Source: a virus
Lineage: Duplodnaviria; Heunggongvirae; Uroviricota; Caudoviricetes
Virus record (IMG/VR): IMGVR_UViG_2695420792_000007
DNA: 9,373 nt
Reading direction: 5' to 3' (one strand)
In this document: piece by piece, positions 1-6,209 of the stretch
Position numbering within the stretch: position 1 is the first letter of the stretch
How the letters are laid out: the number at the start of each line of letters is the position of its first letter
Made by a program: the position numbers and the translations under genes
Notes under the pieces: generated by a model
What the model saw: only the letters and a program-made list of their open reading frames with translations
Database searches by the model: none
Told to the model about the DNA's origin: nothing

Positions 1-344
1 GCCATCATGAAAGTTAATTGCGTGTCCCGCACCTCCGCCTATATTCCCGGCAAACTGAGAAAAGTTTGTAGCTTCCTGCCAGCTTAATAATTCGCGACCA
101 CCGTCTGCACCTCGCCCGTCATCCCAGATACGAATGAAATCACCGCGGGCTTCAGGTAATACCAGCGAAGGAAACACTTTCGCCAGCACAGGATAATCAG
201 TGGCAGAGAATTTCGCGCCGTTGAACTTCAAAAACACCATACTGGACCAGCTGTCGATTACAGTATTTGGCATTGCAGCGGACGGCCAGAAGAACGGAAC
301 GCCAATAGCTGGAGCACCTTCTCCCAAACCAACGTTTAAGAAAA
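1..344 (-). CDS. Phage tail fibre variable C-terminal cassette 'a' (partial; runs off the window start; silent orientation with no upstream constant part in the window)
   Basis: Manual minus-strand translation from the crossover site down to base 1 is open with no stops: ...GLGEGAPAIGVPFFWPSAAMPNTVIDSWSSMVFLKFNGAKFSATDYPVLAKVFPSLVLPEARGDFIRIWDDGRGADGGRELLSWQEATNFSQFAGNIGGGAGHAINFHDG. This matches the phage tail-collar motif pattern of P2 H / Mu S / P1 S tail-fibre C-termini (recalled). Upstream on this strand is the antisense of the invertase leader, so no promoter or constant part is attached here. Confidence 0.7.
319..344. other. 26-bp inversion crossover site (hix/gix/cix-like), copy 1
   Basis: Sequence TTCTCCCAAACCAACGTTTAAGAAAA is an imperfect palindrome with AAACC..AA..CGTTT halves, closely resembling hixL TTCTTGAAAACCAAGGTTTTTGATAA (recalled). 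It sits directly upstream of the invertase and inside the tail-fibre reading frame, as in Mu G / P1 C / e14 P segments. Confidence 0.65.
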
Positions 345-399
345 TGCAGAGGTAACAGCTAACTGGCATCATCTCCGGTTTTTATTCAGGGGGATGATC

Positions 400-966
400 A
401 TGCTTATTGGCTATGTACGCGTGTCAACAAATGACCAGAACACCGATTTGCAACGTAATGCACTGAACTGCGCGGGATGTGAGCGGATTTTTGAGGACAA
501 AATCAGTGGCACTAAGTCCGACAGACCGGGGCTGAAAAAACTACTCAGGACACTATCGGCAGGAGACACGCTGGTTGTCTGGAAGCTGGACAGGTTGGGG
601 CGCAGTATGCGGCATCTTGTTACGCTGATAGAAGAGTTGCGCCAGCGTGGTGTGAATTTCAGAAGCCTGACTGACAGTATTGATACCAGTACCCCAATGG
701 GCCGTTTCTTTTTTCATGTCATGGGTGCCCTGGCTGAAATGGAACGCGAACTGATAGTTGAACGTACCAGGGCAGGGCTGGCTGCAGCTCGTGCCAAAGG
801 CAGAGTAGGTGGACGCCGTCCTAAGTTGACCACCGAACAGTGGGCACAGATTGGGCGTTTACTCGAGGCCGGAGAATCAAGACAGCGTATTGCACTGATT
901 TTTGATGTAGGCGTTTCTACCATTTATAGAAAATTTCCGGCAAATAAGATCAATGAATCCCCCTGA
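400..966 (+). CDS. pin: Serine DNA invertase, Gin/Hin/Cin/Pin family, copy 1
   Basis: Translation MLIGYVRVSTNDQNTDLQRNALNCAGCERIFEDK...SLTDSIDTSTPMGRFFFHVMGALAEMERELIVERT is near-identical in its N-terminal half to Gin/Pin as recalled, with the catalytic Ser in VRVSTNDQ. Start is placed at the second ATG (400) because homologues begin MLIGY and AGGGGG at 388-393 sits 6 nt upstream; the ORF track uses the ATG at 394. Confidence 0.9.
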   Translation: MLIGYVRVSTNDQNTDLQRNALNCAGCERIFEDKISGTKSDRPGLKKLLRTLSAGDTLVVWKLDRLGRSMRHLVTLIEELRQRGVNFRSLTDSIDTSTPMGRFFFHVMGALAEMERELIVERTRAGLAAARAKGRVGGRRPKLTTEQWAQIGRLLEAGESRQRIALIFDVGVSTIYRKFPANKINESP

Positions 967-1004
967 ATCAGCATTATGTTGATTATCCCTGCAAGCAGAC
1001 AAAT

Positions 1005-1022
1005 ACCGTTATTTTGTGTGAA
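1005..1022 (+). promoter_or_regulatory. TGT-N12-ACA Ogr/Delta-type activator box of a putative late promoter (PF-like) upstream of the sheath gene, copy 1
   Basis: TGTgtgaataacgacACA lies about 100 bp upstream of the FI-like start codon, where the P2 F-operon late promoter is expected. P2/P4 late promoters carry a TGT-N12-ACA element near -55 (established knowledge). The -10/-35 elements were not confidently located. Confidence 0.5.
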
Positions 1023-1108
1023 TAACGACACAACTGCGCTTAGCTGTTTGTCAGGCACAATCACTTCAACATAGGGCGAAGCCTAATCCAATCAGGAGGT
1101 TCGCCACT

Positions 1109-1282
1109 ATGGCTCAGGATTACCACCACGGGGTGCGCGTTGTTGAAGTCAACGAAGGCACCCGATCTATTACCACGGTGAGCACCGCCATCGTGGGTAT
1201 GGTCTGCACGGGCGATGATGCCGATGCAAAAATGTTTCCTCTTAATAAACCCGTGCTGATCACTGATGTGCTGACTGCCAGC
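1109..1282 (+). pseudogene. Tail sheath protein (P2 FI-like) 5' fragment, about 58 codons, copy 1
   Basis: AGGAGG at 1093-1098 precedes the ATG at 1109. [58 protein letters not shown] matches the recalled P2 FI N-terminus (MSDYHHGVQVLEINEGTR...[10 protein letters not shown]...). After 1282 the reading frame continues into the antisense of tail-fibre genes, so the 140-aa ORF in the track is not a real sheath protein. Confidence 0.75.
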
Positions 1283-1458
1283 ACTGGTTTTCCATTCAGT
1301 GTTCCAATCTGTTTTCCTGGTGGAATATCCATAAATAACTTTTTATGTTCTTCCTCACTGACTATTACACCATCATCAGGCCACAGACCTGATGCCTCAA
1401 ATTTTTCTTTCTCCGATATGGGGAAAAAGCCATTTGCTTTAGCGCTCCATACGTACAT
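1283..1458 (-). pseudogene. Tail fibre assembly chaperone (Tfa/Caudo_TAP-like) N-terminal fragment, cut at the duplication junction
   Basis: Minus-strand ATG at 1456-1458 gives [58 protein letters not shown], the characteristic N-terminus of tail-fibre assembly proteins (YxxSAKxNAFYP...WPDDAVEV, recalled). It starts 1 nt after the stop of cassette 'b'. Homology ends at 1283, where the strand becomes antisense of the sheath gene. Confidence 0.65.
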
Positions 1459-1459
1459 A

Positions 1460-1767
1460 TCAATACCCCACCGCTATAATGTCCACATTAAATCCCCCGG
1501 GACCTGCCTGCCAGATGCTGGCCCCTGTTAATGATTTTGTTTGATGAACAACCGCCACATTTGCTGGCGATTGTGTTTCAGTTGTTACAGTACCGATATC
1601 ATTCCAGTTAATTGAGATGGAATAGTTCGTTGTTGTAAACGACCGGGGGAAAGTTATGTGTCTTACATTGGTGCCAACAGGAAATCCAAGATAAACACGC
1701 TGAATTATCATTCCTCCAGGTAACATAACCCAGTTAGCACCTTCTCCCAAACCAACGTTTAAGAAAA
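1460..1767 (-). CDS. Phage tail fibre variable C-terminal cassette 'b' (silent orientation), read through crossover site copy 2
   Basis: Minus-strand frame is open from the crossover site to the TGA at 1460-1462: ...[97 protein letters not shown]. It shares the GLGEGA junction with cassette 'a' and then diverges completely, and is followed by a Tfa-type gene, as in Mu Sv-U units. The track ORF start at 1795 is an antisense artefact of the invertase leader. Confidence 0.6.
1742..1767. other. 26-bp inversion crossover site (hix/gix/cix-like), copy 2
   Basis: Same 26-bp sequence as 319-344, in direct (not inverted) orientation relative to copy 1. Confidence 0.65.
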
Positions 1768-1822
1768 TGCAGAGGTAACAGCTAACTGGCATCATCTCCG
1801 GTTTTTATTCAGGGGGATGATC

Positions 1823-2389
1823 ATGCTTATTGGCTATGTACGCGTGTCAACAAATGACCAGAACACCGATTTGCAACGTAATGCACTGAACTGCGCGGGA
1901 TGTGAGCGGATTTTTGAGGACAAAATCAGTGGCACTAAGTCCGACAGACCGGGGCTGAAAAAACTACTCAGGACACTATCGGCAGGAGACACGCTGGTTG
2001 TCTGGAAGCTGGACAGGTTGGGGCGCAGTATGCGGCATCTTGTTACGCTGATAGAAGAGTTGCGCCAGCGTGGTGTGAATTTCAGAAGCCTGACTGACAG
2101 TATTGATACCAGTACCCCAATGGGCCGTTTCTTTTTTCATGTCATGGGTGCCCTGGCTGAAATGGAACGCGAACTGATAGTTGAACGTACCAGGGCAGGG
2201 CTGGCTGCAGCTCGTGCCAAAGGCAGAGTAGGTGGACGCCGTCCTAAGTTGACCACCGAACAGTGGGCACAGATTGGGCGTTTACTCGAGGCCGGAGAAT
2301 CAAGACAGCGTATTGCACTGATTTTTGATGTAGGCGTTTCTACCATTTATAGAAAATTTCCGGCAAATAAGATCAATGAATCCCCCTGA
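1823..2389 (+). CDS. pin: Serine DNA invertase, Gin/Hin/Cin/Pin family, copy 2
   Basis: 190-aa translation in the ORF track is identical to copy 1; same start-codon reasoning (track start 1817). Confidence 0.9.
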   Translation: MLIGYVRVSTNDQNTDLQRNALNCAGCERIFEDKISGTKSDRPGLKKLLRTLSAGDTLVVWKLDRLGRSMRHLVTLIEELRQRGVNFRSLTDSIDTSTPMGRFFFHVMGALAEMERELIVERTRAGLAAARAKGRVGGRRPKLTTEQWAQIGRLLEAGESRQRIALIFDVGVSTIYRKFPANKINESP

Positions 2390-2531: not shown

Positions 2532-2915
2532 ATGGCTCAGGATTACCACCACGGGGTGCGCGTTGTTGAAGTCAACGAAGGCACCCGATCTATTACCACG
2601 GTGAGCACCGCCATCGTGGGTATGGTCTGCACGGGCGATGATGCCGATGCAAAAATGTTTCCTCTTAATAAACCCGTGCTGATCACTGATGTGCTGACTG
2701 CCAGCGGTAAAGCGGGTGAGTCAGGTACTCTGGCCCGTTCGCTGGATGCCATCGCTGACCAGGCAAAACCCGTGACCATTGTTGTGCGTGTGCCGCAGGG
2801 TGAAACGGAAGACGAAACCACGACCAATATCATCGGCGCAGTGACTGCTGAAGGTAAAAAAACAGGTATGAAAGCCCTGTTACCCGCAATATTGAACAGC
2901 TCGGTGATGCGCTGA
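2532..2915 (+). pseudogene. Tail sheath protein (P2 FI-like), truncated after about 117 codons
   Basis: [12 protein letters not shown]...[30 protein letters not shown]...[19 protein letters not shown] follows the recalled P2 FI sequence to about ...TGLKAML, then gives [10 protein letters not shown] and a stop. The ORF is 127 aa against about 396 aa recalled for P2 FI. Confidence 0.75.
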
Positions 2916-2935: not shown

Positions 2936-4984
2936 ATGTCGAAAGGGGCAGACATCATTGATGTCATGCAACGCCTGGGCGGTGTGGCTGATCGTCTGGA
3001 TTATCGTAAAGCGGCGGCGCTGGGTTCCACCTTTCTGACACTGGGCGCTGCGCCAGAGGTTGCAGCCAGTGCAGCAAACGCGATGGTGCGTGAATTGTCC
3101 ATTGCCACCATGCAAAGCAAGAGTTTCTTTGAAGGGATGAATCTGCTGAAACTCAATCCTGAAGTGATTGAAAAGCAGATGACGAAGGATGCGATGGGAA
3201 CTATCCAGCGCGTACTGGAGAAGGTGAACGCACTGCCGCAGGATAAACGTCTGTCTGCCATGACCATGTTGTTTGGTAAAGAGTTTGGCGATGACGCGGC
3301 GAAACTGGCAAACAACCTGCCGGAACTGCAGCGCCAGCTAAAACTGACAGCGGGCAATGATGCGCTCGGCTCCATGCAGAAAGAATCCGACATTAACAAG
3401 GACTCACTTTCTGCGCAGTGGTTGCTGGTCAAAACCGGAGCGCAGAACACCTTCAGCAGCCTGGGCGAAACGCTGCGCCAGCCGCTGATGGATATTCTGT
3501 ACACGGTGAAAAGCATCACGGGGGCGTTGCGCCGCTGGGTGGAAGCTAACCCGGAACTGACAGGCACACTGATGAAAGTAGCCGCTGTGGTGGCTGCGGT
3601 TACCGTAGGCCTCGGAACCTTAGCGGTGGCGCTGGCTGCAGTGCTGGGGCCGCTGGCAGTGATTCGTCTGGGATTCTCTGTGCTGGGTATCAAAACGTTA
3701 CCTTCCGTTACGGCAGCAGTAACCCGAACCAGCAGCGCGTTGTCCTGGCTGGCTGGCGCACCACTGGCACTGTTGCGACGCGGGCTTGCTTCATCGGGCA
3801 ACGCCGCAGGTTTACTTACTGCGCCGTTGTCGTCTTTGCGCCGCACGGCATTACTGACGGGAAATGTCCTGAAAACTGTAGCAGGTGCGCCGGTTGCACT
3901 TTTGCGGTCTGGATTATCCGGTTTACGTGCTGTTGCTGTGATGTTTATGAATCCTCTGGCGGTACTGCGCGGTGGACTGGCCGCCGCAGGCACGGTGCTG
4001 CGAGTACTGGCATCTGGTCCACTGGTGATGCTGCGCGTTGCCCTGTATGCCGTATCTGGTCTGTTAGGTGCTCTGCTCAGTCCGATAGGTCTTGTGGTTA
4101 CTGCACTGGCGGGCGTGGCGCTGGTTGTCTGGAAATACTGGCAACCCATCACCGCATTTCTTGGTGGCGTGGTGGAGGGATTCAAAGCGGCGGCAGGTCC
4201 CGTCAGTGAAGCATTCGAACCGCTTAAGCCCGTGTTCCAGTGGATTGGCGACAAAGTACAGGCGCTGTGGGGCTGGTTTACTGATCTGCTGACGCCCGTT
4301 AAGTCGACCTCTGCCGAACTGCAGAGTGCAGCGGCAATGGGGCGACGATTCGGGGAGGCACTGGCGGAAGGGCTAAATATGGTCATGCATCCGCTGGACT
4401 CCCTGAAATCCGGCGTTTCCTGGTTGCTGGAGAAGCTCGGCATTGTCAGTAAAGAGGTCGCAAAGGCAAAACTGCCGGAAAGCGTGACGCGTCAGCAACC
4501 TGCGACGGTGAATGCAGACGGTAAAGTGATGATGCCATCGGGTGGTTTTCCATCATGGGGATATGGCTTTGCGGGGATGTATGACAGCGGCGGGTATATC
4601 CCGCGCGGGCAGTTTGGCATCGTCGGTGAAAACGGGCCGGAAATTGTTAACGGCCCGGCAAATGTGACCAGCCGGAGAAATACAGCTGCACTGGCTGCCG
4701 TTGTTACCGGAATGATGGGAGTTGCTGCCGCGCCAGCAGAGCTTCCACCGTTGCACCCTTTGGCACTTCCCGCGAAAGGTGGAGAAGCAATTGTGAGTCG
4801 CGCAGCCACTGTGCCGCCCGTTTACAGGATTGAGGCACCGACGCAGATCATCATCCAGACGCAGCCAGGACAAAGTGCGCAGGATATTGCGCGGGAGGTG
4901 GCCCGCCAGCTTGATGAACGTGAACGCAGGCTGAAGGCAAAGGCCAGGAGTAACTACAGCGATCAGGGGGGATACGACGCATGA
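2936..4984 (+). CDS. Phage tail tape measure protein (P2 gpT-like), 5'-truncated; first in-frame ATG at 2936, frame open from 2858
   Basis: 682-aa ORF with a tape-measure-like N-region (...LGSTFLTLGAAPEVAASAANAMVRELSIATMQ...LFGKEFGDDAAKLANNLPELQRQL...), a central hydrophobic region with repeated PLxxLRxGL motifs, and a C-terminal Gly-rich end. The stop overlaps the gpU start (ATGA at 4981-4984). It is about 100+ residues shorter than the roughly 815 aa recalled for P2 T and has no RBS-equipped native start. Confidence 0.8.
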   Translation: MSKGADIIDVMQRLGGVADRLDYRKAAALGSTFLTLGAAPEVAASAANAMVRELSIATMQSKSFFEGMNLLKLNPEVIEKQMTKDAMGTIQRVLEKVNALPQDKRLSAMTMLFGKEFGDDAAKLANNLPELQRQLKLTAGNDALGSMQKESDINKDSLSAQWLLVKTGAQNTFSSLGETLRQPLMDILYTVKSITGALRRWVEANPELTGTLMKVAAVVAAVTVGLGTLAVALAAVLGPLAVIRLGFSVLGIKTLPSVTAAVTRTSSALSWLAGAPLALLRRGLASSGNAAGLLTAPLSSLRRTALLTGNVLKTVAGAPVALLRSGLSGLRAVAVMFMNPLAVLRGGLAAAGTVLRVLASGPLVMLRVALYAVSGLLGALLSPIGLVVTALAGVALVVWKYWQPITAFLGGVVEGFKAAAGPVSEAFEPLKPVFQWIGDKVQALWGWFTDLLTPVKSTSAELQSAAAMGRRFGEALAEGLNMVMHPLDSLKSGVSWLLEKLGIVSKEVAKAKLPESVTRQQPATVNADGKVMMPSGGFPSWGYGFAGMYDSGGYIPRGQFGIVGENGPEIVNGPANVTSRRNTAALAAVVTGMMGVAAAPAELPPLHPLALPAKGGEAIVSRAATVPPVYRIEAPTQIIIQTQPGQSAQDIAREVARQLDERERRLKAKARSNYSDQGGYDA

Positions 4985-5466: not shown

Positions 5467-6209
5467 ATTTCAGCTCTGAACTGCTTAACAAAGGCAACAA
5501 AACTCCGGCATTCAGCATCAGTATTGAAGGCAGGGATATCACCACTGTGCTGGACAACCGCCTGATGGGGCTGACGCTGACGGATAACCGGGGATTTGAA
5601 GCGGACCAGCTTGATCTGGAGCTGGACGACGCCGATGGAAAAATCGTGCTGCCGCGCCGTGGTGCGGTCATTACGCTGGCGCTGGGCTGGAAGGGGCAGC
5701 CGCTTTTCCCGAAAGGGGCATTCACGGTGGACGAGATTGAACACACTGGCGCACCGGACCGCCTGACTATCCGGGCGCGAAGTGCTGATTTTCGGGAAAC
5801 CCTGAATACCCGCGAACCTGCGAAGAAAGAAAGCACCACGGTGAAGCGTAAGCGCAGAACTAAGAAGCAGAAGAAAGAGCCAGAAGCGAAGCAGGGCGAT
5901 TACCTGGTGGGTACGGATGAAAACGTGCTGGTACTTAATCGCACTTATGCCAACCGGAGCAACGCCGAACGAGCGGCGAAAATGCAGTGGGAACGCCTGC
6001 AACGCGGCGTTGCGTCATTCTCGCTACAACTGGCAGAAGGGCGGGCAGATCTCTACACGGAAATGCCAGTGAAAGTCAGTGGCTTTAAACAGCCGATAGA
6101 TGATGCGGAATGGACCATTACGACTCTGACGCATACCGTCAGCCCGGATAACGGTTTTACGACCAGTCTGGAGCTTGAAGTGAGGATTGATGATTTCGAA
6201 ATGGAATGA
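5463..6209 (+). CDS. Phage tail protein gpD-like (late gene D), apparently shortened by an internal in-frame deletion
   Basis: 248 aa from a GTG start. N-terminal (...LTDNRGFEADQLDLELDDADG...VDEIEHTGAPDRLTIRARSADFRETLN) and C-terminal (...WERLQRGVASFSLQLAEGRADLYTEMPVKVSGFK...GFTTSLELEVR) regions match recalled P2 gpD, but the protein is about 140 aa shorter than the roughly 387 aa recalled. Confidence 0.75.
   Translation: MNFSSELLNKGNKTPAFSISIEGRDITTVLDNRLMGLTLTDNRGFEADQLDLELDDADGKIVLPRRGAVITLALGWKGQPLFPKGAFTVDEIEHTGAPDRLTIRARSADFRETLNTREPAKKESTTVKRKRRTKKQKKEPEAKQGDYLVGTDENVLVLNRTYANRSNAERAAKMQWERLQRGVASFSLQLAEGRADLYTEMPVKVSGFKQPIDDAEWTITTLTHTVSPDNGFTTSLELEVRIDDFEME

Follow-up and report, generated by a model that had tools for sequence, protein, structure and literature searches.

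Switching of phage tail fibres by DNA inversion has been understood since the 1980s. The system is already known in the P2-like elements of Escherichia coli, since inversion of their fibre segments has been published: the fibre segments of P2-like prophages phase-vary in EPEC E2348/69, and the co-existence of both orientations in clonal E. coli cultures has been documented for e14 as well as for P2-like prophages (PMC4272514).

Here we describe a locus of this kind in a stretch of 9,373 nucleotides (the window, IMG/VR record IMGVR_UViG_2695420792_000007), which corresponds to positions 2-9374 of contig CYEH01000023.1 of assembly GCA_001284685.2 and thus begins at the contig end. By every sequence criterion that could be applied here the locus is a member of the Hin/Gin/Cin/Pin class, apart from the presence of a partner site, for which the contig begins too late. 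In our reading, positions 319-344 are very probably a crossover site, the one nearer to the invertase, in a tail-fibre switch of the Pin/Cin/Gin/Hin type carried by a P2-like remnant, and both orientations of the invertible segment were probably present in the culture. Related sequence is widespread: of 5426 complete E. coli genomes, 1953 have a match to at least part of window 1-1760.

A pix-type crossover site at the edge of a tail-fibre cassette

The window consists of two scaffold pieces. Piece X (1-1282) runs from a silent fibre cassette, A, through the site and the invertase into the sheath gene, of which it has the start, and piece Y (from 1284) begins with a fragment of a chaperone gene, B, and silent cassette B, and then passes through the site and the invertase into the sheath gene and beyond. 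The sites and the fibre genes that they border are the following.

319-344, plus strand: 26-bp invertase crossover site, pixR-like and invertase-proximal, with half-sites at 319-330 and 333-344 and the core at 331-332
1742-1767, plus strand: identical copy of the crossover site on scaffold piece Y, found by motif search of the window and comparison with the contig record
1-330, minus strand: silent tail-fibre C-terminal cassette A (GLGEGAPAIGVPFFWPS...), from translation, open to the start of the window and contig
1460-1753, minus strand: silent tail-fibre C-terminal cassette B, ending AVGY*, from translation; Pfam Gp53-like_C at 4.5e-6
1284-1458, minus strand: tail-fibre assembly gene of cassette B, first 58 codons, cut by the contig end; aligns with the annotated gene in two of the reference loci (L009 and L001)

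The site at 319-344 reads TTCTCCCAAACCAACGTTTAAGAAAA and has the 12-2-12 layout around a central AA, at 331-332, that an earlier note on this DNA had claimed for it. Its half-sites are TTCTCCCAAACC and, reverse-complemented, TTTTCTTAAACG, so that it shows the organisation by which the site class is defined, two imperfect inverted 12-bp half-sites of the form TTNTCNNAAACC around a 2-bp core. For comparison, the reference sites (gix, cix, pix and hix) were taken from sequence records: cixL and cixR are annotated in the P1 record, pixL and pixR come from e14 in E. coli K-12 and gixL and gixR from Mu, and hixL and hixR were read in a Salmonella contig, in which they were located by a search with the sequence of hixL, and where hixL is found directly upstream of hin. 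The alignments, for which the earlier note had called, gave identities of 15-25 of 26 positions and assign the site to the hix/gix/cix/pix class. The likeness to hixL at most positions, which had been claimed, holds at 19/26, though e14 pixR is closer, with 25 of the 26 positions identical; the remaining values are 21/26 for e14 pixL, 19/26 each for P1 cixL and cixR, 17/26 each for Mu gixL and gixR and 15/26 for Salmonella hixR. The AA core is common to the window site, pix, cix and hix, and the right-hand site of Escherichia phage 500465-1 is identical to the site at 319-344. Judged by these alignments, the window site is essentially pixR with one substitution.

Searches of both strands of the window with the exact sequence and with a degenerate invertase-site consensus returned, at up to three mismatches, no further match beyond 319-344 and 1742-1767, and neither pattern was matched in any of 200 dinucleotide-preserving shuffles. 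The absence of matches in the shuffles bears on the view that the site is a chance resemblance, or the result of coding constraint on the fibre motif (L/V)GLGEGA, and has no function in recombination. This view, to which we attach a negligible probability, draws on the site being coding on the minus strand and on the conservation of GLGEGA among cassettes; it is opposed not only by the shuffles but also by positions 333-344, which are non-coding in the expressed configuration and yet fit the half-site consensus, by collinearity between genomes, which switches precisely at the site, and by the canonical distance between site and invertase, as in Mu and e14.

The site lies inside a minus-strand tail-fibre frame, as had been proposed, and translation places it at the 5' edge of the C-terminal cassette. 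Read on that strand it encodes I-F-L-N-V-G-L-G-E, followed by G-A and then by cassette-specific sequence, PAIGVPFFWPS... in cassette A and NWVMLPGG...AVGY* in cassette B, and the peptide GLGEGA is conserved among the cassettes. Cassette A shows a weak match to the Collar domain, under the Pfam cut-off. Chaperone genes are annotated adjoining each cassette.

Only the invertase-proximal site is carried by the window; the contig starts 318 bp to the left of the site, and the fibre constant part and the partner site, where sequence near TTCTCACATACCTTGGTTTGGGAGAA is expected, lie beyond that point. In five related prophages and phages there are exactly two sites each, mutually inverted and with TT and AA cores, of which one is inside the fibre gene and the other before the invertase, ∼1.75-1.8 kb apart. 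The partner site in the fibre gene of the complete genome L009 reads TTCTCACATACC TT GGTTTGGGAGAA, and base 1 of the site falls at codon position 2 both there and in the window. As the sites are in the same codon phase, inversion would swap the fibre C-terminus together with its assembly chaperone in frame. Indeed, when the inversion was modelled with strands exchanged at the core of the site, an uninterrupted fibre fusion ending AVGY* resulted, and the 652-bp junction predicted in this way is present in one piece in three complete genomes, at 98.2-99.7% identity, and in a fourth at 96.4% over 97% of its length. In the complete genome L010 the predicted fusion is annotated as a single fibre gene. 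The in-frame swap of C-termini that the earlier note had foreseen is thus borne out by the equal codon phase, the open modelled fusion and the occurrence of the same fusion as one annotated gene.

L009 and L010 are the informative comparisons for the flip states, and their alignment changes from collinear to inverted within an overlap of only 23 bp, in which the centre of the site is included. Cassette B is silent beside the invertase in L009, L001 and the window, and L010 and two more complete genomes have it joined to the fibre constant part. For cassette A, L009 has the fused form (3222-3556, inverted, 97.3% identical), and L003 and piece X have the silent one. Both orientations of the segment therefore occur across genomes, with the joint at the site; within this isolate it is the scaffold structure that points to them. 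L003 was also considered as the flipped state of the same segment and was rejected, since its other cassette differs.

The scaffold joint and the apparent duplication

The window, as given, contains the invertase twice. The features around the joint are listed below.

1283: scaffold joint, N in CYEH01000023.1 and A in the window, the sole difference from the record
1109-1282, plus strand: tail sheath gene, first 58 codons, at the end of piece X, from alignment with references
400-966, plus strand: serine DNA invertase of 188 aa on scaffold piece X; Pfam Resolvase at 2.2e-53 and HTH_7 at 1.4e-15, Ser9 in YVRVSTNDQ
1823-2389, plus strand: the same invertase gene on scaffold piece Y, with the equivalent of the predicted enhancer at 1841-1912 and of its Fis-type cores at 1845-1859 and 1893-1907

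Positions 313-1282 and 1736-2705 are identical (100% over 970 bp), and taken at face value they are two direct copies, 1423 bp apart. A true tandem duplication would turn the region into a three-site multi-inversion locus, Min- or shufflon-like, with two invertase genes, as the linear sequence is written; multi-site P2-like switches do exist in EPEC (PMC4272514). We nevertheless rejected it as highly improbable. The public record has an N at the exact discontinuity, 1283, and the one-piece version of the duplicated arrangement is found in 0 of 5426 complete E. coli genomes. Collinearity with the reference prophages breaks at 1282/1284, where the sheath gene meets an antisense fibre-assembly gene, so that the joint interrupts the sheath gene to its left and the chaperone gene to its right, and in related prophages the number of sites is exactly two. 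The open reading frame that spans the junction, 1109-1531, had no match in an exact-protein look-up, and that of the sheath fragment led to contig CYEH01000023.1. The N at 1283 and the absence from complete genomes indicate that the second invertase and the direct repeat of the site are not genomic: a single site of the genome is shown two times in the window, in two contigs joined by the scaffolder.

Comparison with L009 accounts for the two pieces. In this genome one segment holds both cassettes, cassette A as the reverse complement of window 1-335 (97.3%) and cassette B 99.4% identical to window 1284-1800. By this alignment, piece Y is the L009 orientation, and piece X has the look that is expected of the flipped orientation. 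The sequenced culture probably held both orientations of the segment, a reading that is founded on the scaffold structure and not on reads; if so, the switch would still be active in a defective prophage. We also observed that the stretch between the two pieces is 945 bp in L009, near the length of the duplicated fill, which may reflect a gap-size estimate followed by gap filling.

The same junctions could have a different origin, in which the site is of pix type by descent and now a fossil, and the two junctions represent two P2-like prophages, each fixed, that share an identical invertase/sheath flank. E. coli genomes often contain several elements of this kind (up to 6-7 places matching the window per genome); moreover, the prophage has two internal deletions, cassette A is paired with differing partner cassettes in L003 and L009, and a scaffold joint proves nothing about the sequenced population. 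We consider this origin unlikely, given that the invertase has an unbroken reading frame, with 99.5% identity to its counterpart in phage 500465-1, and that the 970 bp are shared at 100%, whereas independent relatives differ by 0.2-3.5% there. It is also at odds with the complete genome L009, which has exactly cassettes A and B in one segment, and with co-existing orientations being the norm for e14 and P2-like switches in culture (PMC4272514).

The preferred reading, one switch captured in both orientations, has a consequence for the use of such assemblies. Invertible segments break short-read assemblies, and scaffolders can write both flip states consecutively, which gives rise to phantom gene duplications; here the phantom consists of an invertase gene and a crossover site that are each written a second time without being present twice in the genome. 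Phantom duplications of this kind can be read as indirect evidence of a switch that was active in the sequenced culture.

The invertase and its predicted Fis enhancer

The crossover site at 319-344 is placed 55 bp upstream of the invertase, whose full-length identity falls from 85.3% with PinE through 77.4% with Cin and 73.4% with Gin to 67.0% with Hin, and whose best relatives of solved structure are the Gin entries 3UJ3 and 4M6F (1e-92). Membership of the shufflons (Rci, sfx), which are characterized by a tyrosine recombinase and multiple 19-bp sfx repeats, was rejected, since the recombinase here is a serine resolvase/invertase and there is a single type of site, in two copies in the relatives. 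The enzyme carries the wild-type His106, the equivalent of Hin H107; mutation of H107 to Tyr renders Hin Fis-independent (PMC3798978). A promoter scan found no sigma-70-like promoter upstream of the invertase gene. Between the site and the start codon of the invertase there is a weak terminator-like hairpin with a T-run (361-380, plus strand), which is within chance, as two terminator-like hairpins were found vs 1.0 ± 1.1 expected.

In the first part of the gene we located a region that resembles the recombinational enhancers of the known invertase genes.

418-489, plus strand: predicted recombinational enhancer, the counterpart by homology of cin nt 19-90, which the P1 record annotates as the enhancer of Cin-mediated inversion
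422-436: Fis-type core I, TGTCAACAAATGACC, 15 bp
470-484: Fis-type core II, GCGCGGGATGTGAGC, 15 bp

The first 140 nt of the invertase gene were compared with pinE, cin, gin and hin, and there is no indel between the two relevant blocks; over 418-489 the closest is pinE (63/72 identical), followed by cin (56/72), hin (54/72) and gin (52/72). The assignment of the cores in hin is ours, made from what is known of the Hin enhancer together with the Fis motif. The centres of cores I and II are 48 bp apart, and a 48-bp spacing of Fis sites is ascribed to Johnson et al. 1987, as cited in PMC3798978. Regulatory Fis motifs have G/C at ±7 and Y-R steps at ±3-4 (PMC4784862), and both cores fit these rules apart from position −7 of core I, which is T here and in hin. 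Between the Fis sites of the known enhancers there is an AT-rich element that is approached by the helix-B region of Hin; in the window its TAATG is conserved and its ATTTA is present as ATTTG. From the centre of the site to core I the distance is 97.5 bp, vs 96.5 bp in Mu and e14 and 106.5 bp in hin.

The codons of this region are also more alike than those of the rest of the gene. Among same-amino-acid pairs in the five genes, codon identity is 0.51-0.57 in codons 1-30 vs 0.39 elsewhere, and the eight best 24-codon windows of codon identity all begin at codons 1-9. The raised codon identity is consistent with a constraint at the nucleotide level, though not specific to one.

A Fis-dependent enhancer had been expected by the earlier note in the 5' region of the invertase, at both copies of the gene, and a scan for two Fis sites about 48 bp apart had been suggested. 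The expectation stands for 418-489, where the homology is free of gaps and the two cores have the 48-bp spacing; the second region, 1823-1970, falls away, as it is the same gene repeated by the scaffolding artefact. As for the scan, the pair at 422-436 and 470-484 was located, but the degenerate motif does not discriminate: with the consensus GNNYRNNWNNYRNNC at up to one mismatch there were 209 matches vs 233 ± 14 in shuffles, no better than chance, and pairs of motifs at 48 bp numbered 7 in the window vs 5.8 ± 2.4 in shuffles. Because the scan fails to discriminate, the enhancer call is based on positional homology and not on the motif, and from this homology we infer that Fis binds at 418-489.

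The centre of core II sets the P2-like loci apart. It is CGGGATG in the window and in L001, L002, L003 and L009, whereas it is CAGGATG in cin, gin and pin and CAAATTG in hin. It is more G/C-rich, with one extra G compared with cin, gin and pin, and by the published rules (PMC4784862) weaker Fis binding would be predicted in the P2-like lineage.

The defective prophage, the proposed mechanism and the known systems

To the right of the site the window continues with the tail end of a P2-like phage (sheath, tape measure, gpU, gpD, ogr) and then with the chromosomal genes ybjL, ybjM and grxA. From this gene content, the host element is a defective P2-like (Peduoviridae) prophage remnant adjoining ybjL in E. 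coli. The P2-like late order (fibre, chaperone, invertase, sheath, tube, E/E', tape measure, U, D, ogr) is kept apart from internal losses, the larger of which has created the following fusion.

2532-2882, plus strand: N-terminal part of the tail sheath, joined at 2882/2883 to mid-gene sequence of the tape measure through the loss of 2.8 kb

A further 344 bp are missing, compared with L001, from gpD (late control D; window ∼5803-5813), between 8-bp direct repeats ATACCCGC. With the sheath/tape-measure fusion and the loss in gpD, the prophage is defective and the switch is without obvious use for a virion.

Two observations were made on the surroundings of these losses and on the related prophages. 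The P2-like prophage of E. coli F719 beside ssrA (L002, position 7283) has the same left breakpoint, directly after ...CCCTGTTA, with the right one 43 bp further. The common breakpoint suggests either that breakage recurs at this place or that a shared defective lineage has moved or undergone recombination. The related loci also contain differing minus-strand cargo (L001 2646-4166, L002 25-1011, L003 455-1291 and L010 1-228) at one and the same spot, flanked by the virion-morphogenesis gene and baseplate V; the cargo is of the SIR2-family, DUF6602, pentapeptide-repeat or AAA ATPase type, and the spot may correspond to the variable cargo and defence-gene spot described for P2-like phages.

By analogy with the known invertases, we propose a mechanism in which dimers of the 188 aa invertase would bind the site at 319-344 and its inverted partner in the fibre gene, ∼1.75 kb to the left and beyond the window, and two Fis dimers would bind the predicted enhancer, at invertase codons 7-30 and ∼97 bp from the site. 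The two sites and the enhancer would then form an invertasome on supercoiled DNA. The invertase would cut both sites via Ser9, with a 2-bp stagger at the central AA/TT, upon which the subunits would rotate by 180 degrees and the strands would religate, leaving the segment inverted. The inversion would replace the fibre C-terminus and its cognate chaperone with the alternative cassette.

In a tail-less prophage that keeps an intact invertase, the site and a predicted enhancer, and that apparently flips, the switch might have been retained for the host, with alternative free fibres blocking receptors, or the invertase could act in trans on the segments of other prophages. We offer this as a speculation with little chance of being correct. 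Blocking of receptors against incoming phages by free fibre protein has been reported for PinQ, e14 and StfE2 (PMC12529663).

Among the known systems, P1 Cin/cix, Mu Gin/gix and Salmonella Hin/hix share with the window the 26-bp, 12-2-12 class of site and have invertases that are 67-77% identical. Cin, Gin and Hin have their enhancer in the same place of the 5' coding region and with the same 48-bp spacing, where that of the window is predicted from sequence, and Gin and Cin likewise switch the C-termini of tail fibres. The sites themselves differ, with 15-19 of the 26 positions shared by cix, gix and hix, and the gix core is GA, not AA. The arrangement differs as well: in P1, cin is directed at the segment and its 3' end is overlapped by cixL, whereas hin is inside its own segment and switches a promoter rather than a coding end.

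The closest deposited phage is 500465-1 (Peduoviridae, Wadgaonvirus), with 98% DNA identity over the shared tail region. It has the identical right-hand site and the two-site architecture with the partner inside the fibre gene, and this architecture recurs in the many P2-like prophages of E. coli whose fibre segment is invertible. Compared with 500465-1, the element in the window is without the C-terminal part of the sheath, the tube gene, gpE/E', the N-terminal part of the tape measure and part of gpD.

The P segment of e14 (pinE, pixL/pixR; stfP/tfaP, tfaE/stfE) differs in belonging to a lambdoid element, whereas that of the window is P2-like, in its cassettes, in one base of the site and in the extra G that the window has in core II. 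It is alike in pixR (25/26), in PinE (85%), in the order of silent fibre cassette, site, ∼55 bp and invertase, and in the distance from site to core I (96.5 bp, vs 97.5 bp here), and it too is a defective prophage. The e14 pin/pix switch is the closest known system to the one described here.
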